Positions 5,079 through 45,831 are shown, counted from the first letter of the stretch. The stretch is 49,919 nucleotides of DNA from a bacterium BMS3Abin15 (GCA_002923195.1 BDTH01000047.1:1-49919); one strand, 5' to 3'. The notes: generated by a model not told the origin, from the letters alone. Program-made: numbers and translations.

Positions 5079-7019
5079 TTAATTGTCGACTTTCTTAAAC
5101 ACTTTTACGAAATTTCCCGGCCGATCGCCTATCTCAAGTTTCCATTCCGGCTCGGTTATTCCATCATAATATTTGTAAGCATCGATGAATCTTTCGCTGG
5201 TTCTATAACTTTTGTATTGGTAATAATATCTTATTTCTCCCCGGCGGGTCAGCACATAATAGTCGACGGGATATTGGTCCAGTTCAAAGCGGTATTTAGT
5301 GATGCATTTTCCCTTAAAAAATTCGCAGAATCCGTGGTAGTCCGTCCAGACCGTAAGATTTTCCGCATCGGGGAGTGAATTCAGATATTGCGCCGCCTCA
5401 TAGCCTCCGTAACCCCAGGCGCCAGTAATGAGATATTTTTTAGGAAGCAGGCTGTTGGTGTAATTAAAATAAAAAGGACTACACAACCAAAGACTAACTG
5501 TGCTTATAAGCATAACAACCGGAATCACTACTCGCCATCTTATCTTTTTGCGTAGCTTCGGCATTGATAAAAAGTCATAAATGCCAATGGCCGCCAGGAT
5601 CATAACTAAAGGATAAAGCATAATACTATATCTTACTGTAGCCAATAGGCCACTTTTTATCATAGCTGCTTGAAAGATGACTATAAACAAAGACAATGAA
5701 AAAATAACGAGTTCGTGCTTTGTCGGCTTAAAAACCGACTTAATCCAGATGTATAAAATTGAAATTAAAACAAGCGGTGTCAGAGAAAATATGAGTGGCT
5801 TATGTTCTAAGATTAACTTTTGATAAACAGGAAGAATATTAAAACTGGTAGCATCGCGTTTATCGAATTCAATATGTTCAAGATTGACTATGCTATTTCC
5901 ACTTATCCAGTTAGCCAAAACGAATAGGGTTAATATGATAAGAAGAGTATAAATAATACGAGGTAGAATATTTTTTAGAAATTTTAGCTTTTTTAACAAG
6001 AAGCTAATTATTTGACTGTTAAAATATAAGCTGTCCACTATTAAAAGAATGTTCAGGACAACTACTATCCAAAAAATATATCCCAATCCCTCATAACCTA
6101 TGGTGCCTTTCCAAAGGTGCTTGGATTTTATAAAAACGGCCGGCATCAAAAAGGAAAATACTGCCAGGGATCCGGCCACAATCGCAAAATATGCAACGGA
6201 AAGTTCCAGAATTTTCTTCTTTGATTTTTCAGTGTTCCCAATTTGATCGGACAGGGTGAGTAAAAAATAAAAAAGAATTACTAAAAACAAAAACGGGAAA
6301 AGTATTGCGGCAACATATTTTGTAAGAAGTGCCAGCCCCAAAAAAATAGAGGAAAGAATGGCAAACTTCCTTTTACCCCCACACCAATGTTGCTTATTCT
6401 TGTCGTGTAATTGTTCAGATATATTAATGTCGTTATTTTTTTCGTATTGGTGTGGGGGTGTACTTGTTTTAATGAAAGCTAGGAAAGCGAAAATTGACGC
6501 GGTAGAAAATCCCCACAAAAGAGAATCCGGGTTCACTATCTGCGATATCCCTAAAAGGATAGGGGATAAAAGCATTAAAACAGAGGACAGAAGGGCTATC
6601 CAGTCGTTTTCAGTCACTTTTTTGATTAGCCAAAATAGTACGAGAACGAAAAATCCATTAAAAATCAAAATAGGCAGGCGGAAAGTTAGGTTTAACTTCT
6701 CAGTTCGTTCTGAGTGATAAGCGCTTAATGTCGTATCATCTTTGATCATATGGTCGCGCGGCGTCTTGTCCCAGAGGAGTCCGATTCCGGAAACGTAAGC
6801 CAGTGTTATTCCTGGCTTATCATTTATTCTTGTTTTTTTCCATTTTCGATTAGATATTGCTTCCCAATATTGGGGAACCCTGTCATAGACCCAATAATGT
6901 TCATCAGAGGTTATAAATTTTGTCAGATGGTTAAATCCAAAAATAAAATAAATAATAACAGATACGGCCAGTAAAAATTTAATATAAAAATTATTTTTCC
7001 CTTTTTTTGTTTTTTCCAT
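5079..7019 (-). CDS. GT-C (PMT/ArnT-like) membrane glycosyltransferase with in-frame palindromic insertion
   Basis: Luminal DE motif (TSDEHYW), NPDSLLW, LALLTKY, many TM segments; paralog of the next gene. Confidence 0.8.
   Translation of the reverse strand: MEKTKKGKNNFYIKFLLAVSVIIYFIFGFNHLTKFITSDEHYWVYDRVPQYWEAISNRKWKKTRINDKPGITLAYVSGIGLLWDKTPRDHMIKDDTTLSAYHSERTEKLNLTFRLPILIFNGFFVLVLFWLIKKVTENDWIALLSSVLMLLSPILLGISQIVNPDSLLWGFSTASIFAFLAFIKTSTPPHQYEKNNDINISEQLHDKNKQHWCGGKRKFAILSSIFLGLALLTKYVAAILFPFLFLVILFYFLLTLSDQIGNTEKSKKKILELSVAYFAIVAGSLAVFSFLMPAVFIKSKHLWKGTIGYEGLGYIFWIVVVLNILLIVDSLYFNSQIISFLLKKLKFLKNILPRIIYTLLIILTLFVLANWISGNSIVNLEHIEFDKRDATSFNILPVYQKLILEHKPLIFSLTPLVLISILYIWIKSVFKPTKHELVIFSLSLFIVIFQAAMIKSGLLATVRYSIMLYPLVMILAAIGIYDFLSMPKLRKKIRWRVVIPVVMLISTVSLWLCSPFYFNYTNSLLPKKYLITGAWGYGGYEAAQYLNSLPDAENLTVWTDYHGFCEFFKGKCITKYRFELDQYPVDYYVLTRRGEIRYYYQYKSYRTSERFIDAYKYYDGITEPEWKLEIGDRPGNFVKVFKKVDN
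6376..6458. mobile_element. In-frame MITE-like element (CCCCCACACCAA termini) inside GT-C gene
   Basis: ACCCCCACACCAAT (6375-6388) and ATTGGTGTGGGGGT (6446-6459); flanks TTTA/TGTA; encodes PPHQ...HWCGG, absent from the adjacent paralog. Confidence 0.8.
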
Positions 7020-8916
7020 TTTTTACTTTATTGGGTTTATTGCTGTAGGAAACGTCAATCTTATCTGACTTAATTACTTTGACAAAGTTACTTTCTCTTC
7101 CTCCCAAATTTATCTGGAGGTCCGGATTTTCAAATGTATAAAGTTTATCAAATCGAATTAGATAATCAGGCTTCATTGCCATTTTAGATAAGACTTGGCG
7201 GGTATTCTGGGCGCGTTTCCCGGTTGTCGCGATGAAATAGTCGAAATTATTTTCTCCGCTGGTGATGTAGCGCTTGTAATCCAGAGTACTGGTACAGTGG
7301 CCTCTAAAGAAATAACACACTCCTCGCTTGTCAGTCCAGACGTAAAGGTTTTCGGCGCCCTCCAGGATATTAAGGTATTCCGCCGCTTCATAATTTCCAT
7401 CGCCCATGTCTTTCAGATTTAGAACGTATTGTGGAGGCAATAGATTACTGGCATAACTGAAATAAAAAGGCTTAATTTTATAGAGAGTGGTTATAAGCGT
7501 TAAAGATATTAAAATTAATAAAGTATAAATAATCAGGTTGTCTTTTTTATATTTTTTTATTAAAAAAGAAATTACAAAAGAAATTCCAGTAGCGGCAATA
7601 ATAAAATAAAGTGGGAAGAGGGCAATTTGATAGCGCACGGTTGTAGCCACGTCATTTACGGTTGATCCCAAATAGTAAAGCATGATAAAAATTATAAAAC
7701 AAAAAACAACCTGGTTACTTATTTTAGAAAAAGCATCTTTTTTAAAAATGTAGAAAGCGGCTATTAAGATAGCAATAACAACAACTATTGAGATGCCGAA
7801 TGTTGAAGAGTAAAAACCAGAAAGAAATACGGCCAAGAAACCATTTGAATTGTAGGCCGACTTAGGAGATGCAACTATGGACTCGAAATTAAACCAAGGC
7901 ATTTTGGCGTACACATTAACAATAGTGATTACAATGCTAGCGATAAATAACGAGGCAATCGCAATGCCGATAATTCTCCTGGCTTTCACCAACAGCGACA
8001 ATAGTCTTTCAAATATTTTACTTTTTAAGATAAGTAAATCGGCAACTAGCAGGACTATTAGACCCACGAAATATTGCCAGGTGCTTTCAAAGGCCTCACT
8101 CAATAAAGTTGCATCCAGCAATTTTTCCGGCTTAACCCAGACAGCTGGAAATAAAATAGTGAAAGTTACCAAGGCAATGATTACTATTTTTCCCAAATCC
8201 AATAAAGATCTTTTGACATATTGAGAAGCATCGCCTATTTTTTTGTTGTTTAAAAAGTAATCAAGAAATATCAAGCCAAGAAAAAATATAATCAAAATAT
8301 TAGAAACATATTTTGTAAGAAGTGATAGTCCTAGTAATATTCCAGTAGAATAAATGTAGCGTTTATCCTTACTTTTTATATAATTAAAATAACTTAAAAT
8401 TGTGAGTGGCATAAATATCCATAGCAGTGAGTCGGGATTGATGATGCGGGAAATTCCCAAAAGAATAGGGGAGAGCCCGATGAACAGAACAGAAAACATA
8501 GCCGTGAGGTTGCCAAGAAGGCGGCTGATAAAAAAATAAAAAACCGGTAGCATTAAGACGGTAAATATAAATAGAGGAAGGCGGAGGGCGAGAAACAGAT
8601 TTTCAATGTTTTTTTGCGGATTATAATGTCTGCTTTTAGTGTCATACTCTTCAGGATTTTCTTTAAGTAGACCGACTCCGGATACCAGAGCTGTGGTTAT
8701 TCCTGGCTTATCGCTGATTCTTGTGCCCTTAGGATCAAGTTCCTTTATATTTTTCCAATATTTTGGAATGCGATCAAGAGTCCATAGGGGCTCATCTACC
8801 GGGGCCTGTCTAGAGAGATTATATATTCCGAAACCGAAGTTTATAATCATTACCAAAACAACTACCGCTAGTGGTAGTATTTTTTTAAACTCAAAATTGT
8901 TTTTTATAGAACTCAT
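6991..8916 (-). CDS. GT-C (PMT/ArnT-like) membrane glycosyltransferase (start moved to MSSIK)
   Basis: PVDEPLW, RISDKPGIT, INPDSLLW, LSLLTKY; the ORF-track extension to 9006 reads through a palindromic repeat. Confidence 0.8.
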   Translation of the reverse strand: MSSIKNNFEFKKILPLAVVVLVMIINFGFGIYNLSRQAPVDEPLWTLDRIPKYWKNIKELDPKGTRISDKPGITTALVSGVGLLKENPEEYDTKSRHYNPQKNIENLFLALRLPLFIFTVLMLPVFYFFISRLLGNLTAMFSVLFIGLSPILLGISRIINPDSLLWIFMPLTILSYFNYIKSKDKRYIYSTGILLGLSLLTKYVSNILIIFFLGLIFLDYFLNNKKIGDASQYVKRSLLDLGKIVIIALVTFTILFPAVWVKPEKLLDATLLSEAFESTWQYFVGLIVLLVADLLILKSKIFERLLSLLVKARRIIGIAIASLFIASIVITIVNVYAKMPWFNFESIVASPKSAYNSNGFLAVFLSGFYSSTFGISIVVVIAILIAAFYIFKKDAFSKISNQVVFCFIIFIMLYYLGSTVNDVATTVRYQIALFPLYFIIAATGISFVISFLIKKYKKDNLIIYTLLILISLTLITTLYKIKPFYFSYASNLLPPQYVLNLKDMGDGNYEAAEYLNILEGAENLYVWTDKRGVCYFFRGHCTSTLDYKRYITSGENNFDYFIATTGKRAQNTRQVLSKMAMKPDYLIRFDKLYTFENPDLQINLGGRESNFVKVIKSDKIDVSYSNKPNKVKNGKNKKREK

Positions 8917-8966
8917 CGTATTGCTACGGTTTTTTAAGTTATAAAAAATGATTAATAAATTATGCG

Positions 8967-9015
8967 ACCCCCACTCTTTCTCCCCCTTACTAAGAAGGAG
9001 AAGCAAATAGGGGGT
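8967..9015. repeat. CCCCC/GGGGG-bounded imperfect palindrome with internal CTCCCCCTT-ACT-AAGAAGGAG hairpin
   Basis: Related to the repeat at 21063-21158; lies between divergent genes. Confidence 0.55.
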
Positions 9016-9101
9016 TAGGTTGCTTAATGCCGGTAAATATAATAAAATTAGGATTGTTACGCTATTCTACTGAATTGTAGCATAATAAGTTAAAAAATAA
9101 A

Positions 9102-10844
9102 GTGAAGGTATTTTTTAAAAAAGGAACTTTTATTGCCTTGCTGGTAGCTGTTATTGCCGTCGGAATTTTTTTGCGCGGCTATAATTTTTCCGACTGGATC
9201 CATTTTGAACTAGACCAGGCAAGAGACGTTTTGGTAATATCGGAAGCGGTTGATAATGGTATAGGCAATTTGCCCCTCTTGGGCCCAAGAGCGGCGGGCA
9301 CTTTTTTACGACTAGGCCCCGCATTTTATTATCTAGAATATATTAGCGCCAAAATATTTGGAAATACTCCTTTCGGAGTAGCTTTTATCATTTTGCTCTT
9401 TTCTATTCTTACACTGCCTCTTTTTTATTTAGTTTGTCGCCGATACTTTAACAAATGGAATTCTTTGGGTCTGCTGTCAATATTTTCTGTTTCAATTTTT
9501 CTCATAATGTATTCCCGCTTCGCCTGGAACCCCAATCTGATTCCTTTTTTTGTGCTGTTGATTTTTTACTCTCTCTTAAGAGTCGTTGACAAGGAAGAAA
9601 AAAAGAGGGATTTATGGATGTATATTTTCGCGGTCTCTCTTGCTATAGCCACCCAGCTTCACTTTCTGGTACTCCTAACTATTCCAGTGGTTTCGGTCGT
9701 ATTCCTGCTAGTTAAACGACCAAGGTTTAGTTGGAAAGTTTGGGCAAGTTCATTTTTAATTGTAATATTTTTCTACTCACCGGTTATAATCAACGAAATA
9801 AAAACGGGAGGCGATAATGCTAAGGAATTTGCTGAAGCGGTTTCGGGCAAGTCACAAAACGAAAAATACAGCGTTATAGAAAAAGCCATCAGAAATTATG
9901 AAGAAAACGCAATTGGAAGTTTTTTAATCTTGAGCGGAGTGGAAAAAGCAGAAGTTGTAAAAGTTAAGACCGCACTTAAGGTTTCCAATGCATTTGAATT
10001 TAAATGCGATAAAGACTGCAGAAAAAATTTACCCTGGAGTATCACGGCTTTTATTGTTTTTTCTCTGGGAATTGTTCTTTTAGTTGTAAGATTAATAAAA
10101 GAAAAGGATGTTAGTCGGAAAAACTTTTTACTCTTTTCATTTCTATGGCTCATTGTATCTTTTATTGTTTTTCTTCCGGTTGCATACGATATTTCTCCCA
10201 GATTCTTTCTTATCACTGCCCCGCTTCCTTTTATTTTTCTCGGACTCATTTTTAATTTTATAACCAAGCTTACAAATAAAGGAAAATGGATTATTATTGC
10301 AATAATAACCGCTTTAATTGTTTCAAATTCACTAGCCATTATGACTCGCTTTTCTCAGCTTAAAAAAGCGCCTCTTGAAAATGTAAAAATAAATCCAGAC
10401 AGAATACTAAAGGAAAGGGCGCGCGTTACGCTTGAACAGCAACAATTAATAGTAAGCTACATTAGCAAAATAGTTGAGAAAAATAATTATCCTGTTTTCT
10501 TGGACAGTGAATCTCAACATGATCGGGCGCTGAAATATATCATTAGAAAGGAAGGAATGGCCGCTAGCAGTGTGAAAACAAGCAAGGTATACAGGAATGG
10601 AAATTACTTTCTTGTTTTCAGAACATCGTCAAACCTTGAGGAAGAAATCGCAAAATATAGCATAGCTTATAAAGTAATAGAAAAGAAAGAATTTGGCACA
10701 CTGATAGTTTTTAGGCTTTTGCCCGAAGAGGAGTCCATAACAGATGTTGACTGGTATTTTTCAGAAGATGACGATAATGACAGATCAGCGCCCGGGGTTC
10801 CTGAGCGCTACAATTGGAATGAGATATTTAGTAAGCCCCGTTAG
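9102..10844 (+). CDS. GT-C (ArnT/PMT-like) membrane glycosyltransferase
   Basis: FELDQARD, PLLGP, YSRFAWNPNLIPFF, ATQLH; multi-TM; GTG start. Confidence 0.8.
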   Translation: MKVFFKKGTFIALLVAVIAVGIFLRGYNFSDWIHFELDQARDVLVISEAVDNGIGNLPLLGPRAAGTFLRLGPAFYYLEYISAKIFGNTPFGVAFIILLFSILTLPLFYLVCRRYFNKWNSLGLLSIFSVSIFLIMYSRFAWNPNLIPFFVLLIFYSLLRVVDKEEKKRDLWMYIFAVSLAIATQLHFLVLLTIPVVSVVFLLVKRPRFSWKVWASSFLIVIFFYSPVIINEIKTGGDNAKEFAEAVSGKSQNEKYSVIEKAIRNYEENAIGSFLILSGVEKAEVVKVKTALKVSNAFEFKCDKDCRKNLPWSITAFIVFSLGIVLLVVRLIKEKDVSRKNFLLFSFLWLIVSFIVFLPVAYDISPRFFLITAPLPFIFLGLIFNFITKLTNKGKWIIIAIITALIVSNSLAIMTRFSQLKKAPLENVKINPDRILKERARVTLEQQQLIVSYISKIVEKNNYPVFLDSESQHDRALKYIIRKEGMAASSVKTSKVYRNGNYFLVFRTSSNLEEEIAKYSIAYKVIEKKEFGTLIVFRLLPEEESITDVDWYFSEDDDNDRSAPGVPERYNWNEIFSKPR

Positions 10845-10941
10845 AAAAGTCTGCCTTTATAATAAAAGTCTGTAATTGAATATTGAGTTAAGTCCTGTAT
10901 TTGCTGTAATAAAATTCAAACCCCGGGCTATTCTAACGGGG
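10836..10941. mobile_element. MITE-like element (CCCCGTTAGA subfamily) overlapping the stop codon of the upstream gene
   Basis: CCCCGTTAGAA ... TTCTAACGGGG; flanks TAAG/TAAA. Confidence 0.75.
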
Positions 10942-10968
10942 TAAATAACGCGCACTCTGCAAATAAAA

Positions 10969-11595
10969 ATGACTAGAACGGAAAAAATATTACATTACAT
11001 ATCAATAGTACTGAAGGTCTTTATTGGAGTTTTGGTTTTGATTAGTGTATGGAGACAAGACTACTTTTTAGCTGTCGTGTCGCTGTTCATTTTATTTTTT
11101 ACTTTCCTTCCGGCAATTGTCAGTAGGAGCTTTAAAATTAATCTGCCGGTTGAAATTGATTTCTTATTAACAATTATTCTCTATACATCCTATGGACTGG
11201 GAGAATATGGCGGTTTTTATGTGAGGTTTTTTTGGTGGGATTTATTTTTACATGCTGGGTATAGCCTTATCCTTGGAATGGTGGGATTTATTTTTGCCTA
11301 CTCACTTTTAATAACCAGTCGGATTAAAGCCAAGCCATTATTCATTGCTTTATTTGCCGTATCATTTGCCGTATTCGCCGGAGTTGTATGGGAAATTTTT
11401 GAATTCAGTATGGATCAAGTTTTCGGGCTTACTATGCAGAAGAGTGGATTAGTGGACACAATGACCGACTTATTAGTTGATTCTATAGGAGCGATAACAA
11501 TCGGCTTAATTGGATTTTTCTATATAAAAAATCCCAAACCGGGAATTATTCACAGTATCGTTACTAAGTTTGTGGATATAAAAGACAGAGACTAG
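10969..11595 (+). CDS. Membrane protein, DUF2238/YjdF-like
   Basis: WWDLFLH, WEIFEF and DTMTDLL motif pattern; ~6 TM. Confidence 0.65.
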   Translation: MTRTEKILHYISIVLKVFIGVLVLISVWRQDYFLAVVSLFILFFTFLPAIVSRSFKINLPVEIDFLLTIILYTSYGLGEYGGFYVRFFWWDLFLHAGYSLILGMVGFIFAYSLLITSRIKAKPLFIALFAVSFAVFAGVVWEIFEFSMDQVFGLTMQKSGLVDTMTDLLVDSIGAITIGLIGFFYIKNPKPGIIHSIVTKFVDIKDRD

Positions 11596-11646
11596 GCACT
11601 CCCATGCTGATAATAAAAATGGCTCAAATAAGCTATTTAAACGCTA

Positions 11647-11675
11647 TTGACAGAAAAGTTATTATGCTATAGTAT
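11647..11675 (+). promoter_or_regulatory. Putative sigma70 promoter of the NYN gene
   Basis: TTGACA-17 nt-TAGTAT. Confidence 0.6.
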
Positions 11676-21619: not shown

Positions 21620-22735
21620 TTACTGATTACTAGTTATTTTCTGTATTTCCTCTAAATATCTTTTGGCAATCTTATCCCAGCTATAATTTTCAATTACAAA
21701 CTGCCGGGATTTTTCACCGAATTCTTTTCTAAAATTATCGTCGGCTAACAACTCGTTGATTTTATGAACGTAGACCTGCCTCGACGGTAGGCGGGTATCA
21801 ACATCATCCATTTCAATTAAAAATCCATTCTGTCCGTCTTTGATTGCATCTTGCAATCCCTCAAGCCGAGAAGCAATTACCGGAAGGCGGCAGGATCCGG
21901 CTTCGATTACTGAAATTCCGAAACCCTCCATATCTCCCTCGATTATTATATTGGGCTGAATGAATAAATCACAGGTGTTGAATAATATATTTCTGACTTT
22001 GTCGCTTACGTATCCAAGCATCTTAACTCTATCGGACAGATTATTTTTCTTGATAGCATTTTTAATGTTTTCTTTGTCGGGCCCGTCTCCGACAACAACA
22101 TAGGTTATGTTCTCGGGCAGCCCTGGCATTACATTACCAATAAACCAGGCCACGCCTTTTCTTTTAGCCAGCCGTCCGGATGTAAGCAATACTTTTCTGT
22201 TTTCTAAATTATCACTCAAAATTTTCTTTAAGTCATTTCTTGAATAATTTCCTAAATTTTTTTCTGTGTCTACGCCATTGGGGATAAAAACAAACTTATC
22301 TTCATAAATTCCTTTTTTTACCCCGACTCTTATGGTTTCGTTTCCCACGGCGATTAGCTTGTCGCATTTTTTAATAAATATTTCCACCCATAATTTTTGG
22401 AATAAGCTCATTTTATAGGTAAGGTCCAACCCGTGAACAATGGATACAACAGGTTTTTTGTAGAGCAATTTTACAAACCACCCTATAACACCTAACACGC
22501 CATCACCCAAAAGAAGCACATCGTATTTTCTGAACAAAAACAGCGCTCGAACAAGAGCGTAAGGAGCAAATATCGGAAGAAAAATCTTGCCACGGGTATT
22601 GGCTATGGTCTTAACATCGGCAATTTTCGAAAGCCACCTGGAAAGTTCATAATTCTGGCTTTCAATCCCGCCAACAGTAGGGGGATAAGCCCGGGAGATA
22701 AAAAGAATTTTTACCCTGTTAGATTTTTGCGCCAT
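21620..22735 (-). CDS. Glycosyltransferase family 4 (PimB-like)
   Basis: SRAYPPTVGGIE; DMEGFGISVIEAGSCRLPVIAS. Confidence 0.92.
   Translation of the reverse strand: MAQKSNRVKILFISRAYPPTVGGIESQNYELSRWLSKIADVKTIANTRGKIFLPIFAPYALVRALFLFRKYDVLLLGDGVLGVIGWFVKLLYKKPVVSIVHGLDLTYKMSLFQKLWVEIFIKKCDKLIAVGNETIRVGVKKGIYEDKFVFIPNGVDTEKNLGNYSRNDLKKILSDNLENRKVLLTSGRLAKRKGVAWFIGNVMPGLPENITYVVVGDGPDKENIKNAIKKNNLSDRVKMLGYVSDKVRNILFNTCDLFIQPNIIIEGDMEGFGISVIEAGSCRLPVIASRLEGLQDAIKDGQNGFLIEMDDVDTRLPSRQVYVHKINELLADDNFRKEFGEKSRQFVIENYSWDKIAKRYLEEIQKITSNQ
21774..21796. repeat. CCTGCC/GGCGGG hairpin repeat in frame in GT4
   Basis: ACCTGCCTCGACGGTAGGCGGGT; encodes TRLPSRQV on the minus strand. Confidence 0.6.
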
Positions 22736-22814
22736 TGATTATTGATTAAGTAACAACAAAAAATTATTAACTAAACTAAAACCCCGGATGTATAATCTGA
22801 AAAGTCTAACGGGG
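22714..22814. mobile_element. MITE-like element (CCCCGTTAGA subfamily) spanning the GT4 start codon
   Basis: CCCTGTTAGA ... TCTAACGGGG with exact TTTA/TTTA flanks (22710-13, 22815-18). Confidence 0.75.
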
Positions 22815-24152: not shown

Positions 24153-25598
24153 CTACCGCCCTATCCCTCTGTATATTATACCATACTTTTGAATAGCATC
24201 TTTGTCCAGGCAATTTTTTCCGTCGACAATAGCTTTAATGGAATATTTTTTAAATATGCTTGGATCAAGTTTCTTAAATTCATCGTGGTCAGTGACAAGA
24301 ATAACCGCTTTGGATTTCCTTAATAGTTCCTCTATGTTTTTCACATCTGACATATGCGGAACGTGAGGATCAAACATTATTACATCCGCATCGTGTTTTT
24401 GTAAATGCTCCAATATTTTGAAAACTGGAGATTCTCTAAGGTCTGCAACGTTAGCCTTATATGATATGCCCAGAATCCCTATGGGAGTTCCCTTCATTGG
24501 CATTTTAATACTATTTAAAGAATGTTGAAGAATATTAACTGTGTATTCTGGCATTGAGTTATTTATTTTTCTGGCAATTTTTAAAAACTCGTGGTCAAAT
24601 CCGCTAGCCTTAGCTCTTTCTATAAGATAATAAGGATCAACCGGGATACAATGACCACCAACGCCGCAACCGGGAAAATGAGGCATAAAAGCGAATGGCT
24701 TAGTAGACGCGCCTCTTATTACGTCGTCAATGTCTATATTCATTCGGTCAAACGATTTTGCTAACTCATTGACGAAAGCAATATTAACATCCCTGAATGA
24801 ATTCTCTACGATTTTAACAGCCTCAGCTTCACGAATTGATTTCATCGGATAGATTTCGGCATCAAGAATTTTTTTATAAAACTTCACAGCCAAAGATAAT
24901 CCCTTTTTACTGAAGGCGCCGACTACGCGGGGAATATTAACCACATTCCAATTAGCATCTCCTGGGTTTATTCTTTCTGGGCAGTGAGCTAGGTAATAGT
25001 CTTTTCCTACTTTGTATCCGGCCTTGGCGAATATTGGCTCAACAACCTCTTCGCATACTCCGGGATTAACAGTAGATTCTATTACTACCAGTTGTCCTTT
25101 TTTAAAATTCTTTACAATTGAAGTTACGGCTTTCTTGACCGGACTTAAATCGGGATAATATTTTTCATCTACGGGAGTAGGAACGCAAACCAAAACTATA
25201 TCTGATTTTTTAATAACCTTGGCATCGGCAGTAGCTTCTATTTTTACCCCGACACCAATTTTAGCAGAATCTTTCGAAGATATATTGGTAGAGCTGATAG
25301 ATGACTTCGTCTTGCGGTTATTATTTTTTTCAGAGCCTGTCTTGGGATTGGTGTTGGGGTTTACTTTAGGCAAGTTGTTCTCTAAAAAATCCTCCTTTAT
25401 AGGGCTTTTTCCGGAATTAATTTTCTTAATCTTTTTTCGATCATTTTCCAATCCAAAAACCCTAAACCCACTTAAGGCAGATTGTACAGCCAATGGAAGA
25501 CCAACATAACCCATTCCGATTACGCAAACCGTTTGTTTTAACCTGTTTTTCCCTTTATTTTTCATAGTTATATTGAATTTATCAACATTTTTCATCAT
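24153..25598 (-). CDS. Nucleotide-sugar (UDP-GlcNAc/ManNAc-type) dehydrogenase with in-frame palindromic insertion
   Basis: IGMGYVGLP, CVPTP, IESTVNPG, CPERINPG, ENSFRDVNIAF, GVGGHCIPVDP, DLRESP. Confidence 0.93.
   Translation of the reverse strand: MMKNVDKFNITMKNKGKNRLKQTVCVIGMGYVGLPLAVQSALSGFRVFGLENDRKKIKKINSGKSPIKEDFLENNLPKVNPNTNPKTGSEKNNNRKTKSSISSTNISSKDSAKIGVGVKIEATADAKVIKKSDIVLVCVPTPVDEKYYPDLSPVKKAVTSIVKNFKKGQLVVIESTVNPGVCEEVVEPIFAKAGYKVGKDYYLAHCPERINPGDANWNVVNIPRVVGAFSKKGLSLAVKFYKKILDAEIYPMKSIREAEAVKIVENSFRDVNIAFVNELAKSFDRMNIDIDDVIRGASTKPFAFMPHFPGCGVGGHCIPVDPYYLIERAKASGFDHEFLKIARKINNSMPEYTVNILQHSLNSIKMPMKGTPIGILGISYKANVADLRESPVFKILEHLQKHDADVIMFDPHVPHMSDVKNIEELLRKSKAVILVTDHDEFKKLDPSIFKKYSIKAIVDGKNCLDKDAIQKYGIIYRGIGR
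25247..25359. mobile_element. In-frame MITE-like element inside the dehydrogenase gene
   Basis: ACCCCGACACCAAT (25246-59) and ATTGGTGTTGGGGT (25347-60); exact TTTA/TTTA flanks; encodes PNTNPK...KIGVGV. Confidence 0.85.
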
Positions 25599-37485: not shown

Positions 37486-37524
37486 TTTTGTCTGCGAGGC
37501 ACGAGTAGCTGCAAAAATGAGCAT

Positions 37525-37636
37525 CCCGCACCAATTCCCTGTAGTTAATTTATTATTTAATTTAGGCTAAGCCGCAGGCGATTCCGTGGTACAATTTATA
37601 AATCATTAATGACTTCATTCGGAATTTGGTGCGGGG
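37525..37636. repeat. CCCGCACCAA-terminated palindromic element in the rpmA leader
   Basis: CCCGCACCAATTCC ... GGAATTTGGTGCGGGG. Confidence 0.7.
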
Positions 37637-37688: not shown

Positions 37689-37756
37689 CCCCGCACTAAC
37701 TTGACATTTACAGAGCCAAAATTAGCGCTTTGCGCTAATGCCAAGTTAGTGCGGGG
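37689..37756. mobile_element. MITE-like element (CCCCGCACTAA subfamily)
   Basis: 15-bp IR CCCCGCACTAACTTG/CAAGTTAGTGCGGGG; exact TCAA/TCAA flanks; internal ATTAGCGC/GCGCTAAT hairpin. Confidence 0.85.
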
Positions 37757-39904: not shown

Positions 39905-39910
39905 TAAATC

Positions 39911-39944
39911 AAAAACCCTTTGGGAAATTTCCCAAAGGGTTTTT
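39911..39944. terminator. Bidirectional terminator, perfect 34-bp palindrome
   Basis: AAAAACCCTTTGGGAAA|TTTCCCAAAGGGTTTTT. Confidence 0.75.
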
Positions 39945-39955
39945 TGTCGCAAATG

Positions 39956-40072
39956 TTATTGCGAGACAAGCTTGATGAGCAAGGGGCTCTCGGCAATACT
40001 TGCGCCAAGACTCTCTACTGCAATTGCCTCCTTCTCTATAAATTTATCAATGTCCGATTCAGTTTTTTCCAT
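39956..40072 (-). CDS. 38-aa acidic microprotein (not in ORF track)
   Basis: AAGGGGGG SD-like; MEKTESDIDKFIEKEAIAVESLGASIAESPLLIKLVSQ*; own promoter and terminator. Confidence 0.55.
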   Translation of the reverse strand: MEKTESDIDKFIEKEAIAVESLGASIAESPLLIKLVSQ

Positions 40073-40132
40073 CCTTGTACAACCCCCCTTCTGTTTGTTT
40101 TATGTTTTTATCATTAAATTGTCACAAAGAAC

Positions 40133-40161
40133 AGCTTATCATAATGGGAAAATATTGTCAA
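40133..40161 (-). promoter_or_regulatory. Putative sigma70 promoter of the 38-aa ORF
   Basis: Minus strand TTGACA-17 nt-TAAGCT with a TG extension. Confidence 0.6.
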
Positions 40162-40225
40162 TCCCGGCGGCTGGCTCAGGCGTACTGCGCAGAACAATGA
40201 TCTTGCCCAGCTCCTGCCGCCGGGA
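40162..40225. repeat. GC-rich palindromic element flanked by GTCAA direct repeats
   Basis: GTCAA|TCCCGGCGGC ... GCCGCCGGGA|GTCAA. Confidence 0.7.
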
Positions 40226-40271
40226 GTCAAGCATCATTTAATACTGCCTAATTTCGCTAATATTTCAAAAT

Positions 40272-40305
40272 AAGAATCCCTTGGAAATTTTTCCAAGGGA
40301 TTCTT
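40272..40305. terminator. Terminator, near-copy of 39911-39944
   Basis: AAGAATCCCTTGGAAA-TT-TTTCCAAGGGATTCTT. Confidence 0.7.
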
Positions 40306-40310
40306 GTTGT

Positions 40311-40502
40311 CTAATTTGATGTTACTATTTTTTTAGCTTCGTTCCATGCTTTTTCTACATCAGATCCACTAAGACCGAGAACCTCTTCCACCGCCTTAAA
40401 TGTTGCAAGCTCTTCAACCTCTTGAGGACTACCGGGTTGAAGCATGGATAAGGCAAGTTTGTTCACATAATTATCAAATCCTTGTTCAACAGTTGCGATC
40501 AT
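40311..40502 (-). CDS. Hypothetical protein, 63 aa
   Basis: AAGGGGGTG SD upstream; helical, acidic sequence; terminator downstream. Confidence 0.65.
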   Translation of the reverse strand: MIATVEQGFDNYVNKLALSMLQPGSPQEVEELATFKAVEEVLGLSGSDVEKAWNEAKKIVTSN

Positions 40503-40767
40503 AAAAAAACACCCCCTTGTTTTTAAATTATTTTTATTTTAATGCTTCCGGTTTTATAGTAATGGGGTAAAGTAATATATATTACACGTCTAGCGTCTGT
40601 GATATTTCAAAAGCATTGTCGTTTGTGCAGGAGCTAGCTCCCTCCAAAGGCGGGCGGGCCTGCACGGGCTAAAGTGTTTGACAATGGACTAATTTTGCTT
40701 TAATATAATTCATTAACGACAACTTGTTATTTTAAATAAAAAATATCAAAAAAGAAAAGGGGGTATT

Positions 40768-41076
40768 ATGCAGAAGTGGAAGCTGACAGTATCTATTGGC
40801 ATTTATATATTCCACAAAAACTCACTATCCAAGGAAAGCAAGGACAGGTTGAAGAAAAAAGTCAGCAATATTTGTAAAAGGATAAATTCAAATTCAAAGC
40901 TGGTAATGAGAGGAGGTGGCGACTCTATTTGGGCGGAAGCCAAGTGGATGTTTTCATCCAAGAGCAAAACAAAGGCAACTGCTGAAAGAAAAAGGCTGAT
41001 AAATAGATACGTCATTCCTGCTATTAGAGGAAATGGTCTGCGCATAATGAGTCATGAATTGAGAAAAATAAAATAG
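40768..41076 (+). CDS. Hypothetical basic protein, 102 aa
   Basis: AAGGGGG SD; TTGACA-17-TAATAT at 40678-40706. Confidence 0.65.
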   Translation: MQKWKLTVSIGIYIFHKNSLSKESKDRLKKKVSNICKRINSNSKLVMRGGGDSIWAEAKWMFSSKSKTKATAERKRLINRYVIPAIRGNGLRIMSHELRKIK

Positions 41077-41167
41077 AAATATCATCGAGCTCTGTTAAAT
41101 AACAGAGCTCTTATTTTCTGTGCTATAATTTAAATACTTATTTTAATACCTATTTCAAAAATATATG

Positions 41168-41317
41168 CCCCGTAGTGAAAATTCAAAAGATTATATAAAC
41201 TTGCATAGCTTATAGCATAAAATTACGCGGGCAGATAAATTAACACAGGATAACAAAAACTAAACAACTTATCAGAAATCATTTCGGGCTATGCCCATTT
41301 GAATTTCTACTACGGGG
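41168..41317. mobile_element. MITE-like element (CCCCGTAGT subfamily) abutting the NUDIX start codon
   Basis: CCCCGTAGTGAAAATTCAAA ... TTTGAATTTCTACTACGGGG; same termini as 45735-45802. Confidence 0.8.
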
Positions 41318-41834
41318 ATGCCGGCGGAAAAAATTAGCATTGATAATGCGAAAAAAGAAAAACTTTTTTATTTTGTGGCTAACGTGGTTATTTACCGTGA
41401 AAGCGATAAACGCTGTTTGATTTTGAAAAGAGATGAACGGGAAAAAGTTCATCCGGGAAGATATGGCGTTCCGGGGGGGCAAGCTAGAATGGAAAGACAT
41501 GGATATTACCAAGCCGACCAGAATTAACGGCGATGTTTTGGACTTTGAAGACGCAGTGGAAGATTTATTAAAAAGAGAAGCTATGGAGGAAGCGGGAGTG
41601 GAAATTGAAGGTGATTTGAAATATATAAACAGCGTGGCTTTTGTCCGGCCGGATGAAACACCGGTAATCCTGGTTAAGCTCGCCGCTAAATATAAAAGTG
41701 GGGAAGTGAAGCTGGAAAAAGACGCTTTCACTGATCATGTCTGGGTGAATGAGGAAGAGGTGAAAAGCTACGAATGCATTGACGGAATAAAAAAGGAAAT
41801 AGCCAGAACTATAAATTTATATAAATTTATATAA
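41318..41834 (+). pseudogene. NUDIX hydrolase split by a +1 frameshift in a G7 tract
   Basis: Frame 1 ...LILKR...HPGRYGVPGG, frame 2 GGKLE...REAMEEAG (Nudix box); G run 41473-41479 is one base too long. Confidence 0.8.
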
Positions 41835-41877
41835 AAATTAAATTGATTAAAGTTTTAAAATCTGCTAGAATTATTAT

Positions 41878-42417
41878 ATGAAAAATTTCAGAAGCGATAT
41901 TTTTCAATATCTGGGACCTCTTACTTGGAAAGAGGTTTTTGATATGTGGAAAAAAGATGATACTAGCCAAGCGAGCATTGAAACTTATTATCAAAGCAAA
42001 GGATTTCATTCCTGGGAAGATTGGTCTAATACTTACACACAACCGCTCAAATGCTCCGAAGCTAATTGGCATTTGTATGAAATTTTTAGGCCTGAAAAAA
42101 ATGTTCCTAATTTTTATGGAGGGCCTTTCAGGGAATGGGTTGATAATTTTTATGAGGGAAAGAGTATTGTTGAATTCTCAGAGCTTATTAAGTCGCCGTC
42201 AATCAGAAAAAATAAAATAATAAGTGATTTAGTAAATGATTTTCCCAAGAGCACAGTGTTGACTGGGTTGATAATTGACGGAAAGATCGTGATACTTGAA
42301 GGAATGCACCGCTGTTGTGCTCTGGCTTTGATAAATGAAAAGAAAGATGTGATCAGCGGAAAAATTAGTATTGCTTTAGCCGAATATACAGGAAAAGGAT
42401 TGCCAATTGTTGGGTAG
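41878..42417 (+). CDS. Hypothetical protein with a ParB/Srx-like (D/E)GxHR motif
   Basis: IVILEGMHRCCALA near the C-terminus. Confidence 0.6.
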   Translation: MKNFRSDIFQYLGPLTWKEVFDMWKKDDTSQASIETYYQSKGFHSWEDWSNTYTQPLKCSEANWHLYEIFRPEKNVPNFYGGPFREWVDNFYEGKSIVEFSELIKSPSIRKNKIISDLVNDFPKSTVLTGLIIDGKIVILEGMHRCCALALINEKKDVISGKISIALAEYTGKGLPIVG

Positions 42418-42423
42418 AAAATC

Positions 42424-42460
42424 AAAAAGAGCTTACTTAGACTTCTAAGTAAGCTCTTTT
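42424..42460. terminator. Bidirectional terminator
   Basis: AAAAGAGCTTACTTAGA-CT-TCTAAGTAAGCTCTTTT. Confidence 0.75.
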
Positions 42461-42477
42461 ATTTTTTAGCAACATCG

Positions 42478-43527
42478 TTAGTTGCTGTCAGGCAGAGTAA
42501 ACACGAACTCCGGATGGTCGTCGAGTGAGTTTTGGTACCATATCTTGCCGCCATGCCTTTCAATGAGCTTTCTGGCAACATACAGGCCAATACCAGTGCT
42601 GTTTTTACTGTGGAACTTTTCGAAAATTTTATCCTTTTCTTTGTCGGATATAACAGGTCCGTCATTCCAAACAATTATTAGTATCTCGTTGTGTCCGCGT
42701 TCGTATCCTATTGCAATCTTACCGCCCTTTCCACCGTGCTTTATTCCGTTTCCAATAAGGGTTTTGAGGACGGCCTTAAGCCAAGTTTTATTGGCTTCTA
42801 CAGTAATCACGTTGCCGGGAATACTCCCAAGCTTGTTGTCTATAGTGATTTGGTTTTCTATAATTTCCGGGTTAACTTCTTCAAGTACACGGTCAATAAT
42901 GTCTTGGCGCAGATCAAGCTTTTCTTTCTTAGGAATCTTCGCGTCAATAAGCGACGACTTACTCAAATAGTCAGTCACAACATTTATCAAGGTTCCGATA
43001 CGGTGAAACAACTCTTCTACCGTCTTCCTTGCGCTTTCGTCTATCTTACCATACGCTCCACGTTGAAGTAATTTTAGCACAAATTGAATCGACACGAGAG
43101 GTCCTCTTATTTCGTGAGTCGCAGTGCTTAACATATCAAGGATGCCTTTTTCAATAGCAATTCTTTCGGTGATGTCGCGCGAAATTCCAATTAATCCGAT
43201 AATTTCTCCGGTATCGTTTTTCCAGGGCGTTTTTGATACTGACACATAGACTTCACTTCTGTCCGGGCGGGTTATTTTTTCAATCTTGTCCTTAATAGGG
43301 GTTCCGGTTTCCATTACTTTTTTGTCATCAGAATGAGCTATTTCCGCCTGGTCCATTGGCAAGAAATCAAAATCAGTTTTACCTATCATTTCTTTGTAAT
43401 CAACCCCGTACTTTTCAGCCTTAGCCTCGCTTACCATCAAAAATCTGCCCTCGCGGTCCTTGAAATATACGGAATCCGGAGTGTTTCCCATGAGAGCAAG
43501 CAACATCTCGTCATATCTATCTTTCAT
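42478..43527 (-). CDS. Soluble PAS-domain sensor histidine kinase
   Basis: PAS (PDSVYFKDREGRF, GKTDFDF, GLIGISRDITE), H-box ATHEIRGPL, N-box IGNGIKH, DGP, TGIGL. Confidence 0.9.
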   Translation of the reverse strand: MKDRYDEMLLALMGNTPDSVYFKDREGRFLMVSEAKAEKYGVDYKEMIGKTDFDFLPMDQAEIAHSDDKKVMETGTPIKDKIEKITRPDRSEVYVSVSKTPWKNDTGEIIGLIGISRDITERIAIEKGILDMLSTATHEIRGPLVSIQFVLKLLQRGAYGKIDESARKTVEELFHRIGTLINVVTDYLSKSSLIDAKIPKKEKLDLRQDIIDRVLEEVNPEIIENQITIDNKLGSIPGNVITVEANKTWLKAVLKTLIGNGIKHGGKGGKIAIGYERGHNEILIIVWNDGPVISDKEKDKIFEKFHSKNSTGIGLYVARKLIERHGGKIWYQNSLDDHPEFVFTLPDSN

Positions 43528-43620
43528 AACCGCCTCCTTTTTTTAATGAACTAAAAGATTAATACTACAACAGTTTTTTTATTTGTCAAGTTTAAGAGGC
43601 TAAATTGTCTGTCCCCATAA

Positions 43621-43660
43621 TGACGTACATACGAATGAACGTACGTCCGTATGTACGTCA
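43621..43660. repeat. ACGT-rich palindrome
   Basis: TGACGTACATACG-14 nt-CGTATGTACGTCA (perfect 13-bp arms). Confidence 0.75.
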
Positions 43661-43663
43661 AAT

Positions 43664-43699
43664 AAAAAAGCTCGGAATAATTTCTATCCCGAGCTTTTT
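43664..43699. terminator. Terminator downstream of the 35-aa ORF
   Basis: AAAAAAGCTCGG...CCGAGCTTTTT. Confidence 0.7.
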
Positions 43700-43700
43700 A

Positions 43701-43808
43701 TTATTTTACTGATTTAATTTTCGCGCGAAAGAATTTTAACAAAAGGGCAAACAATACGAAAAATACTGCAGAAGACAATATATCAGTAATGAGTATTATT
43801 AAATCCAT
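43701..43808 (-). CDS. 35-aa single-TM microprotein (not in ORF track)
   Basis: AAGGAGG SD; MDLIILITDILSSAVFFVLFALLLKFFRAKIKSVK*. Confidence 0.6.
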   Translation of the reverse strand: MDLIILITDILSSAVFFVLFALLLKFFRAKIKSVK

Positions 43809-43845
43809 TGTGCCTCCTTTAGTTCATTGTTAAATTACAAGTTTA

Positions 43846-44970
43846 TTATTTTTTCTTCACTATAAAACTTTTTGATTCCTTGTCAATTGTTTTTGTTTTT
43901 TCCGCATCTTTCCTCACTGGGTAGGGGAGAGAGCCAAGGATATTTCTCAATGCGACGCCGTTGACTTTCAAAACGTCATTCCATTTTCCCAGTGGCTCAA
44001 GAATGGCCTTTAATTTATCCTCATCATACTTATAAGTCTTACGCAGAGTGCGGGCGATAATTCCATCCTCGCCAAAAACCCTCTCTACTCCTTCCTGATC
44101 CATATATTGCGAAATTTTTCCCTGTAGCTCGGCCAATTTGTTTTTGGAAACGCCCAAGGCGGATTTTATATTCAAATATTCTTCTATCGTTTTATTTATT
44201 TCTTCGCTGTCTATTTTCCGCTGTTCTTTAAATTTATGCTTCCACATCGGACACCTGTCTTGATAACCGCACCAGCCACAAAGAGGGGAGACGACGGGTT
44301 CAAATTTTCCTGATTCTATTTCTTTTATAACATCTAAAAACAATTGCTCACTTTTTTGTAGTTGTTCCCTAGTTCTTTGTGAGCTTAGCTTTACCCCGTG
44401 TTTCAAGTAATATAAGCTGACATTTATTTTATCCAAACGCTCAGCTTCTTTAGGATATCTTTTTAGAAATCCCTGAAGGTAAATTGAAAGCTGAAGATCA
44501 TTATCCACTTTTTCCTGTGAGGGCATTTTTTTGGTGGTTTTGTAATCAATAACTTCATAACCGTCTTCTGTTTTATCAATGCGGTCAATAATGCCTGGCA
44601 CATCATGCTTATTATCATCAGGGCCTATTTCTATTTCAAATCTGGACTCCAAATCTACGATATTGGATTTAGCCGGATCATTTTTTTGATAATAATTTTG
44701 AATTATCTGAACTCCCTGGGAAAACGCTGCTCGCTCTTCTGCTTCATCTTTGAAAATTTCACTGTTCCAATTTTTGGAAAAATAATCCAAGGCTTGCTCT
44801 AAAGTGGGGGAGAGAATGCCGGGAGTATGGATGAATTTCATTGTAGCGTGAATCACACTGCCAAAAACAGCTTCCTTTGATTTAGGCTCCTTAATTTTAT
44901 CAATTTCTTTAAACTTGTACTTTAGAGGACAAGTCTGATAGGTGTTTAATGCGGAGTAAGATATGCGCAT
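43846..44970 (-). CDS. PD-(D/E)XK nuclease (RecB/AddB C-terminal type) with Fe-S staple and C-terminal helical extension
   Basis: SYSALNTYQTCPLKY, GIIDRID, IDYKT, QLSIY, CGWCGYQDRC. Confidence 0.88.
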   Translation of the reverse strand: MRISYSALNTYQTCPLKYKFKEIDKIKEPKSKEAVFGSVIHATMKFIHTPGILSPTLEQALDYFSKNWNSEIFKDEAEERAAFSQGVQIIQNYYQKNDPAKSNIVDLESRFEIEIGPDDNKHDVPGIIDRIDKTEDGYEVIDYKTTKKMPSQEKVDNDLQLSIYLQGFLKRYPKEAERLDKINVSLYYLKHGVKLSSQRTREQLQKSEQLFLDVIKEIESGKFEPVVSPLCGWCGYQDRCPMWKHKFKEQRKIDSEEINKTIEEYLNIKSALGVSKNKLAELQGKISQYMDQEGVERVFGEDGIIARTLRKTYKYDEDKLKAILEPLGKWNDVLKVNGVALRNILGSLPYPVRKDAEKTKTIDKESKSFIVKKK

Positions 44971-45039
44971 AATATTAGTATAAAGTATAAAGTAGAATGT
45001 ATAAAGTATAGTATATCTTAATAAAGGAAAAAGCGACCA

Positions 45040-45378
45040 TTAATTCATGGTCGCTTTTGCCGCTTCTGTAATTTCTATGGGGTTACCATTTTCTGTAACG
45101 TGAAAGACTCGCGTTGCGTCGTTACTTATCTTCTTGATTATTTCTTCCGCCTTTTCCGTGACTACCATGCAGTGAGCTTTTTTGACATTTTTGTCTTCGA
45201 CGATTGCCCAGTTATACTCCTTGCTTAGCTCTTCTGCTATCTGCCAGGAATAGATATAAAGGTAAGTTAGATACTTTCCAAGTGTCAACGGTTTCCATGT
45301 CCACAGAATAGCTACATTTTCATCAACGTCTTCATTTGAACGGAAAAGTCCCTTTGTTACAAATATACGAGAAATCAT
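45040..45378 (-). CDS. Hypothetical protein, 112 aa
   Basis: AAGGAGGG SD; normal globular composition. Confidence 0.7.
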   Translation of the reverse strand: MISRIFVTKGLFRSNEDVDENVAILWTWKPLTLGKYLTYLYIYSWQIAEELSKEYNWAIVEDKNVKKAHCMVVTEKAEEIIKKISNDATRVFHVTENGNPIEITEAAKATMN

Positions 45379-45470
45379 ATTCCCCTCCTTATATGTTGTT
45401 TTTAAATTAACTATTATAACCTAGGCATTATATATTAAAATTAAGGTTTTGTTAATAGCTAAAATTAATT

Positions 45471-45510
45471 AAATATAAGGGTGTTCTGAATTCAGAACAC
45501 CCTTATATTT
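45471..45510. repeat. Perfect 40-bp palindrome (possible terminator)
   Basis: AAATATAAGGGTGTTCTGAA|TTCAGAACACCCTTATATTT. Confidence 0.85.
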
Positions 45511-45524
45511 TTGCGACTTTCTTT

Positions 45525-45602
45525 TTAGCGCTTTATCCTTTTGTGACCTTCTATTGTCTTACGGTCACATTTCTTTGTAGCGGCTTTTTTCTTGGCGGCC
45601 AT
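45525..45602 (-). CDS. Putative 25-aa basic micropeptide (not in ORF track)
   Basis: MAAKKKAATKKCDRKTIEGHKRIKR*; AGGGG upstream but spacing is long. Confidence 0.35.
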   Translation of the reverse strand: MAAKKKAATKKCDRKTIEGHKRIKR

Positions 45603-45734
45603 TCTTTTTCATATCCCCCTATAGTAGATTTTTTTTAATATCCACTTATGTAGATATTACCCAGTAAAGGTACCACAATCCAGGATGATTTAATTATAAC
45701 ACATATGAAGAAATTGCATAGCGGTCACACTTGA

Positions 45735-45802
45735 CCCCATAGTGAAAATTTGAATAATTTTATTATCTTTGGGCAGGGCCCGTTCAAATTTCTACTACGG
45801 GG
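45735..45802. mobile_element. MITE-like element (CCCCGTAGT subfamily) in the -35 box of the Rrf2 operon promoter
   Basis: CCCCATAGTGAAAATTTGAA ... TTCAAATTTCTACTACGGGG; exact TTGA/TTGA flanks. Confidence 0.85.
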
Positions 45803-45831
45803 TTGACGTGTTTTCAAAGTATGTGTATAAT
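45803..45831 (+). promoter_or_regulatory. Sigma70 promoter of Rrf2-iscS-iscU
   Basis: TTGACG-17 nt-TATAAT. Confidence 0.75.

Follow-up and report, generated by a model that had tools for sequence, protein, structure and literature searches.

Miniature inverted-repeat insertions of a Patescibacteria genome share their termini with small GIY-YIG nuclease units

Transposons of the insertion sequence (IS) family IS1380 have termini that start with CC and make 4-5-bp duplications, and the Rickettsia palindromic elements (RPEs) are in-frame palindromes that are retained in proteins. The closest described system to the elements reported here is Ssn/SRM. Ssn-family GIY-YIG proteins bind a hairpin of single-stranded DNA (ssDNA) and cut just upstream of it, a reaction that depends on a conserved sequence upstream (Chenal et al. 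2025, PMC11893778). The layout NTS-ssnA-NTS was called IS-like by the same authors; mobility was not demonstrated there (PMC11893778). The present analysis concerns a family of short CCCC...GGGG elements in a contig of the bacterium BMS3Abin15 (GCA_002923195.1, BDTH01000047.1:1-49919; this whole stretch of 49,919 nucleotides, contig C47 of the assembly, is referred to as the window). They are miniature non-coding transposable elements, whose ends are inverted repeats that fold on each other in ssDNA; in the same genome, termini of the same kind also enclose small genes for GIY-YIG nucleases, the probable mobilising enzymes.

A genome-wide scan, in which detection demanded nearly intact termini, found about 100 inverted-repeat elements belonging to several terminus families. 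The elements are non-coding and 39-150 bp long, with arms of 10-20 nt. Base composition predicts 0.1-1.7 occurrences of their core motifs per strand, and 7-35 are observed (for the weakest, CCCTGTTAA, 10 and 14 against a predicted 4-5); most of the motifs are paired in inverted orientation, 30-330 nt apart. The families are denoted by their termini as F1 (CCCCCACACC, about 40 copies), F2 (CCCCGTTAGA, with a variant CCCTGTTAAATAA, about 30 copies), F3 (CCCCGCACTAA, 10 copies), F4 (CCCCGTAGT(A/G)GAAA, 9 copies), F7 (CCCGCACCAATTC, at least 8 copies) and F8 (CCCCGTCACTTAT and similar, 3 copies); F5/F6 are GC-rich hairpins of 41-55 nt (about 14 copies). On folding as ssDNA the terminal stem dominates, and the interiors of copies within genes are largely unstructured. 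The first-pass annotation had listed eleven elements in the window, and all eleven were recovered with the same positions and termini.

Five of these copies are missing from syntenic relatives; the empty site was read at base level for three of them (25247, 28920 and 29175), while the two upstream of L27 (37525 and 37689) were judged by the length of the spacer. The F1 variant at 25247-25359 (113 bp, CCCCGACACCAA...TTGGTGTTGGGG, with exact TTTA/TTTA flanks) is inserted in frame into a gene of the UDP-glucose/GDP-mannose dehydrogenase family (24153-25598, minus strand), within the part for the NAD-binding domain. None of the orthologues in the 40 relatives searched has the corresponding 39-amino-acid segment. 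On the coding strand the site reads AAAG-TAAA-[element]-TAAA-AATAGAA in the window and AAAGTAAAAATTGAA in the relative G028, and of four relatives aligned base by base, three (G028, G036 and G040) have a single TAAA. Of the relatives found, a syntenic JGI contig (L059/L061) is the closest, with about 85% DNA identity. Its GT4 protein has 380 residues, compared with 436 in the window, where the gene (28594-29904) carries two F1 copies in frame: an 80-bp element at 28920-28999 with a decayed left end (CCACCACACC; flanks TAAA/TGAA), and an 83-bp element at 29175-29257 (flanks TTTA/TAAA), which with its flanks forms a perfect 18-nt inverted repeat (DNA fold z = -6.5). Both are missing in L059/L061. 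The empty sites read GAAAAA-TTAA-GGTAG, for TAAA[element]TGAA, and CAAAA-TAGA-CCC, for TTTA[element]TAAA. Each base-level empty site therefore holds one 4-mer (TAAA, TTAA or TAGA) rather than both 4-bp copies. The spacer between L27 and the next gene is 70 nt in L061 and 242 nt in the window, so that both elements of this spacer must be missing from L061; over the 8 kb of synteny shared with L059/L061, no such element is found.

The flanks of the copies agree with the empty sites. An exact 4-bp direct repeat surrounds 33 of the 84 F1-F4 copies, against 5.5 expected from shuffling flanks within families (none of 5000 shuffles reached 33). The duplication is thus about six times more frequent than chance, the comparison on which the claim of mobility had been made to depend; inverted-type flanks showed no enrichment in the same test. 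Within long open reading frames (ORFs), all 16 F1, F2 and F7 copies are free of stop codons and have a length which, with 4 added, is a multiple of three, as compared with 30 of 89 copies elsewhere. It follows that one T-N-N-A is already present at the target and that four bases come with the element. The proposal of a non-autonomous mobile family is borne out, and each insertion adds the element plus 4 bp. The T-N-N-A preference proposed with it is seen at the empty sites and in the duplicated flanks, but does not extend to F4, which is flanked by (T)ATG. Among element ends with an outward-facing TTGA, 11 of 12 continue as TTGAC, which is true of 15% of all TTGA in the genome, and nine of those 11 have a TANNNT hexamer exactly 17 nt beyond. 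The -35 box is thus restored by the duplicated TTGA, a possible reason for the survival of such insertions. We conclude with high confidence that the elements are genuine insertions of a mobile family.

It had been suggested that long copies with the same termini might enclose a transposase. Such long copies do exist, but they enclose a GIY-YIG nuclease instead. Six units of 278-309 bp were found in the genome, with termini of F1, F2, F2-variant, F4 and GC-rich type. Each contains one ORF of 84-98 amino acids, which starts about 12-25 nt inside the terminus and matches the Pfam family PF01541 (GIY-YIG; E = 1e-13 to 2e-19). Residues Tyr3, Tyr5, Tyr16, Gly18, Arg26, His30 and Glu62 are invariant in the alignment, and among solved structures the UPF0213 proteins 1ywl and 1zg2 come closest (E ~1e-5). 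The F1 nuclease is encoded at C24:16043-16291 (minus strand) and the F2 nuclease at C93:2933-3190. The units are set in tight spacers that separate housekeeping genes, such as TypA-Obg, S20-RuvA and FtsX-FolD. In total the genome has 14-15 small GIY-YIG genes, and those outside the units adjoin tRNA genes or GC-rich hairpins. At C91:72-160, a GC-rich hairpin of 28 nt (CCCGCCTTGATGAGCAACGCGAGGCAGG) is repeated three times in tandem immediately upstream of a divergent GIY-YIG gene, after which comes a tRNA gene.

Of the 151 genomes of the order, 132 contain small genes of the same GIY-YIG type, in 1-18 copies each; CCC...GGG inverted repeats surround the gene at about 9 of the 15 loci inspected. 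A scan across species, with one genome per species, returned 307 close relatives of the F1 nuclease, of which the best 80 were kept. Most of these 80 come from many Patescibacteria lineages, and some are from metagenome-assembled genomes (MAGs) labelled Bdellovibrionales, Planctomycetota, Cloacimonadota or Pseudomonadota, where mis-binning is possible. Around 51 of the best 80, the gene lies in an inverted-repeat unit of 275-326 bp. Direct repeats of at least 4 nt flank 25 of the 51 units, against 2.9% in a shuffled null, and differ from unit to unit (TTTA, TAAA, TAGA, TTCA, CCTA, GCAGG and others). Units of the GCCCCTCAC sub-family are located in the 5' part of tRNA-Ala or tRNA-Val genes and have duplicated 9-11 nt of the host tRNA; since these nucleotides come from each host's own tRNA, an intact tRNA is retained. 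The repeats at the tRNA sites are an unambiguous duplication of host sequence. The GCCCCTCAC units at tRNA genes are those of L113, L119, L121, L124-L126, L128, L132, L137 and L138. In BMS3Abin15 itself, the GIY-YIG genes at C70:794-1024 and C88:309-551 are preceded by a partial 5' copy of the downstream tRNA.

Terminus and nuclease have co-evolved. The terminus class clusters on the nuclease tree, with 26 changes compared with a mean of 46 after shuffling (0 of 200 shuffles were as low). Among 84 short copies of this genome, 25 have at one end 15 nt that recur exactly beside GIY-YIG genes in other species; of 2000 random 15-mers, 3 do so. A phage was also considered as a vector for the spread and was rejected, the sole match being weak (41% identity).

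Our favoured reading, which we hold to be probable, is that the short elements are mobile, non-autonomous and set in motion by the GIY-YIG units. That it is the nuclease which moves them, and by what chemistry, is what we infer from these arrangements, and a possible course of events is as follows. The paired termini would form a stem, to be recognised by the nuclease, which would cut beside it at the adjacent T-N-N-A; the element would then be joined into another T-N-N-A site, and host repair or ligation functions would finish the reaction. The net gain of the element plus 4 bp could reflect a target duplication or an element-borne 4-mer placed beside the 4-mer of the host. The copies that persist would be those that are in frame and stop-free in tolerant parts of proteins, where they are presumably translated as extra loops, and those that regenerate a -35 box through a duplicated TTGA. 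A further step, that the 280-310-bp units are autonomous transposons on which the short elements ride, is plausible and is offered tentatively.

A number of observations weigh against mobilisation by the nuclease. GIY-YIG enzymes hydrolyse DNA and, to our knowledge, are not known to carry out strand transfer, so the joining step has to be assumed. About 60% of the copies have no exact flanking repeat, including 11 of the 16 within genes. The pairing of a TTCA flank with an opposite TAAA flank recurs in the CCCTGTTAAATAA sub-family, in several copies and several species, which is unlike a simple duplication, and the T-N-N-A positions there act as part of a longer inverted repeat, CATTYA...TRAATG. 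The length of the duplication itself varies between sub-families, 4 nt versus 9-11 nt. No F3-type nuclease unit was found in this genome, and for about a dozen close nuclease relatives, which form a well-supported clade of the tree, the search gave no inverted repeats under its criteria (score of at least 12, unit of 270-330 bp). In most short copies, the sequence in common with the gene-bearing units is confined to 19-59 nt at the ends, and most have no sibling in the genome, so that recent copy-and-paste activity is not visible. The nucleases without repeats (L098-L103, L108, L109, L111, L114-L116, L120 and L134) may have been domesticated or may have a different architecture.

Part of the irregularity in the flanks can be ascribed to age. 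Several of the mismatches in flanks within genes fall on third codon positions of Ile or Val, and in copies 28920 and 25247 the termini are mutated too, which indicates that the copies within genes are old and that their flanks have drifted. The termini seem better preserved than the flanks, partly because near-intact termini were required for detection. The interiors had been described as mostly unrelated and rapidly remodelled. The former is true of most copies, with only 21 similar pairs among about 100 elements, but not of F7, F4 and the CCCTGTTAAATAA sub-family, where the interiors are conserved. The sub-terminal variants of F1 (AATT, AACTT, AAAT, CCTAAT, CCTTT and CCTATG) are each matched by a gene-bearing variant in another species, and since the in-gene flanks have drifted as well, old age and many independent source lineages are a more economical explanation of the unrelated interiors than rapid remodelling. 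Two other origins were rejected: capture of interiors from host DNA, as the only genome matches are sibling copies, and simple internal deletion of the nuclease gene, as no gene remnants were found in the short copies.

An alternative is that the short elements are moved by another enzyme, either Y1/RAYT-like (HUH) or an unassembled DDE transposase, with the GIY-YIG gene as a selfish passenger or homing-type gene; the classic homing endonucleases do include GIY-YIG enzymes. A tetranucleotide beside a hairpin stem is a hallmark of IS200/IS605 and REP/RAYT (also discussed in PMC11893778), the many copies without exact duplications are what that mechanism predicts, and six PF01797 (Y1_Tnp) genes are present in the genome. 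However, none of the six lies within 1.5 kb of a CCCC...GGGG element, leaving the earlier suggestion of an HUH transposase unsupported, and several are flanked by different short hairpins (CTTGGAAGC...GCTTCCAAG and variants). A mere passenger is also difficult to reconcile with the placement of the nuclease gene exactly between family termini, in six units here and 51 in other species, with a terminus type that tracks the nuclease tree, and with host duplications of 4-11 nt around gene-bearing units, which IS200/IS605 elements do not make. We consider this alternative unlikely.

The Y1_Tnp genes themselves are located at C87:1-656, C23:4212-5222, C58:3982-4650, C32:1619-2380, C24:7901-8584 and C110:1-177. 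A separate short hairpin repeat, of which ACTTGGAAGCTTAGCTTCCAAGT is an example, flanks the genes on C58, C24 and C32, and this looks like a second repeat system, of REP/RAYT type, in the same genome.

It could also be argued that the nuclease and its hairpins are a domesticated host system of the Ssn/SRM type, in which the hairpins are functional sites (for ssDNA uptake or recombination, or for regulation near promoters) that spread mainly by recombination and not by transposition. NTS hairpins act in Neisseria transformation according to the Ssn paper, the stems here are conserved with variable loops, 11 element ends adjoin -35 boxes, and nuclease genes are intact in most genomes of the order. 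A functional site would nevertheless be unexpected in the NAD-binding domain of a dehydrogenase, and copies occur within conserved enzymes whose relatives have none. The variable host duplications around the copies, the presence of the nuclease gene inside a repeat unit and the close nuclease relatives in MAGs labelled as other phyla are likewise more in keeping with mobility, and domestication is in our judgement quite improbable.

The two remaining explanations have little to recommend them. Copies within genes might be removed at the level of RNA or translation, in an intron-like manner or by bypassing, and so remain untranslated; the terminal stems are strong and bypassed hairpin inserts are known from yeast mitochondria, but splicing or bypassing would make it needless for all 16 of these copies to be in frame and stop-free, which renders the idea highly improbable. 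The origin first suggested for the family, as transposable elements of the miniature inverted-repeat type (MITEs) moved by an IS1380-family DDE transposase, is hardly credible, as the resemblance ends with the CC-starting termini and 4-bp flanking repeats: the best genome score for model NF033539 is 25.8 bits against a cut-off of 180 bits, no long copy with these termini encloses a DDE gene, and the only IS seen at contig ends has different ends.

The presence of elements both in genes and at promoters, as claimed at the outset, is evident throughout the window, where four copies lie in frame within three genes, one covers a stop codon, one is at a gene start, one is in the L27 leader and two adjoin -35 boxes. 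The fourth in-frame copy, an F1 element at 6376-6458 (83 bp, CCCCCACACCAA...TTGGTGTGGGGG, flanks TTTA/TGTA), is in a PMT-like glycosyltransferase gene (5079-7019, minus strand); it is stop-free and, with 4 bp added, 87 nt or 29 codons long. The F2 element at 10836-10941 (106 bp, CCCCGTTAGAA...TTCTAACGGGG, flanks TAAG/TAAA) covers the final two codons and the stop of the ORF 9102-10844, and an F2 variant at 22714-22814 (101 bp, CCCTGTTAGA...TCTAACGGGG, exact TTTA/TTTA) lies at the 5' end of a GT4 gene (21620-22735, minus strand). Between the L27 promoter and start codon is the F7 element 37525-37635 (111 bp, CCCGCACCAATTC...GAATTTGGTGCGGG), which has a conserved left flank (AAAAATGAGCAT) and causes ORF finders to lengthen L27 by 13 spurious codons. 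The neighbouring F3 element at 37689-37756 (68 bp, exact TCAA/TCAA, fold z = -7.5) has as its left flank the -35 box of a leftward promoter (TTGACG-17 nt-TATATT). Similarly, the gene at 45870 has upstream of it a -35 box (TTGACG-17 nt-TATAAT) that is the right flank of a short F4-like element at 45735-45802 (68 bp, exact TTGA/TTGA). The F4 element at 41168-41317 (150 bp, CCCCGTAGTGAAAA...TTTCTACTACGGGG, flanks TATG/ATGC) is identical in its initial 27 nt and final 21 nt to the gene-bearing unit C16:647-955. The F3 element at 233-304 (72 bp, CCCCGCACTAA...TTAGTGCGGGG) has no flanking repeat and abuts an ordinary IS end; its interior is 90% identical to a copy at C49:127-198. The tally of flanks given by the first-pass annotation is thus correct, with exact 4-bp repeats at 22714 and 25247 (TTTA), 37689 (TCAA) and 45735 (TTGA) and one-mismatch pairs at 6376, 28920 and 10836. 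Absent from the earlier list of eleven was a GC-rich hairpin at 40163-40224 (62 bp, CCCGGCGGCTGG...CCGCCGGG), whose flanks (GTCAAT/AGTCAA) resemble the GTCA box of NTS.

The F7 family is represented at the window positions 37486-37635 and at C24:1300-1469, C55:31915-32085, C55:26055-26200, C29:33188-33330, C79:7388-7560, C22:1824-1990 and C71:8640-8830. Its left flank is conserved, (A)AAAATGAGCAT, and reads ATGCTCATTTTT on the opposite strand, where it opens short ORFs (MLIF...). Three F7 copies contain nested GC-rich repeats.

The assembly to which the window belongs comprises 1.22 Mb in 114 contigs, with 37% G+C. The source is an ultra-small, Moranbacteria-like member of the Patescibacteria, and its protein neighbours are named Candidatus Moranbacteria or Patescibacteria. 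The genes of the window have housekeeping and cell-envelope functions, among them TyrRS, several glycosyltransferases, a UDP-glucose/GDP-mannose dehydrogenase family enzyme, CTP synthase and L27; Rfam gave no matches within the window. Elements 37525 and 37689, together with the intervening DNA, are identical at base level in four independent assemblies and are therefore not an assembly artefact. Strain-level contigs retrieved via L27 are the same as the window, except for one IS-bearing variant.

The IS end at window positions 1-232 (plus strand) abuts the F3 terminus at 233; it is multi-copy and stands outside the family described here. Copies of this IS, which encodes an integrase-like transposase, are found at contig ends (window 1-232, C85:1-123, C31:1-230, C104:1-258, C38:1-355, the end of C85, and L058:1-65). 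In most cases one junction has the sequence ...ATTACG/(C)GGGG-TTGACA and the opposite junction ...GAGAACG/CCCCGCAC (slashes mark the junction), from which the IS appears to insert into the CCCCG at the ends of F3-type elements and to duplicate about 5 bp. Most of element 37689-37756 is replaced by the IS in sample DRR093004. Several elements are also found 110-160 nt from contig starts (C28:121, C35:112, C39:131, C49:127, C85:124, C71:147 and C81:155), which suggests that breaks in the assembly are partly due to these elements or to the IS that targets them.

The SRM pattern HGTCWY..RNCYNB has seven matches genome-wide, compared with 1-4 in shuffles, and none in F1-F4. Three of the matches are true NTS-like hairpins (C99:1431-1464, C99:4305-4338, and C67, minus strand, reverse-complement position 235), almost identical to the Neisseria NTS consensus (TGTCATTCCCGCGG...GGGCGGGAATCCAG). 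C99 and C67 are small contigs rich in toxin-antitoxin-like ORFs, on which no GIY-YIG gene was detected, and they may be a plasmid-like region or contamination.

A GIY-YIG coding partner for a MITE-like family is unprecedented; in the literature searched, no description was found of prokaryotic GIY-YIG elements with inverted-repeat ends and target duplications. If the proposed role is correct, GIY-YIG nucleases would be an unrecognised class of prokaryotic transposase, joining the DDE, HUH, serine and tyrosine enzymes, and would probably act on the fold-back stem in ssDNA. Their units would be the smallest self-mobilising DNA elements known, lowering the minimal autonomous size to about 300 bp, and their targets would have diverged by lineage into T-N-N-A sites, -35 boxes and the 5' part of tRNA genes. 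In Patescibacteria genomes, some additional protein segments and some repeats close to promoters would be accounted for, the fragmentation of the assembly may be partly explained, and annotation and modelling of the proteins concerned should recognise such inserts. Nuclease-terminus pairs of differing specificity could serve as ssDNA tools. Why Ssn genes should be flanked by hairpins of their own, and in what way these hairpins multiply, was left open in the Ssn paper (PMC11893778); the variable target duplications, the empty sites and the co-evolving termini would provide concrete substrates for assays of that question.

Comparison with other mobile and repeated elements shows a mixture of features. 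Like MITEs, the elements are short, non-coding and numerous; they have terminal inverted repeats and flanking duplications, and their ends are also those of a coding partner. Flanking duplications and empty sites are both found, yet about 60% of the copies are inexact, and an interior derived from an autonomous element is not shared, save in F7, F4 and the CCCTGTTAAATAA sub-family. The partner, moreover, encodes a GIY-YIG nuclease rather than a DDE transposase and is itself only about 300 bp long. With RPEs they have in common the palindromic structure and an in-frame insertion into genes that is kept as an extra peptide (16 of 16 copies within genes here). RPEs, however, have a conserved consensus of 100-150 bp and no known coding partner, whereas here only the ends are conserved and there is a cognate nuclease unit. 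A specific tetranucleotide beside a stem at the hairpin end, and probably a single-stranded intermediate, recall IS200/IS605 and REP/RAYT; those systems use an HUH Y1 transposase without target duplication, in contrast to the 4-11-nt duplications seen here, and the Y1 genes of this genome are not linked to the CCCC...GGGG elements.

The resemblance to Ssn/SRM is closer. Both have a stand-alone, single-domain GIY-YIG protein of about 90 amino acids (84-98 here), both bracket the gene with repeats that form stems in ssDNA and occur in many copies per genome, and both have a short conserved sequence just outside the stem, CGTCATTCCCGCG...GCGGGAATCYRG in NTS and GTCAA/CCCCGC...GCGGGG/TCAAG in F3 (slashes mark the limits of the stem). 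They differ in that the ends pair across the whole unit in the present elements, whereas Ssn has two separate small hairpins, and in that copies are found within genes here, as are only 2% of NTS in N. meningitidis 8013. In addition, both target duplications and empty sites are documented for the elements described here.

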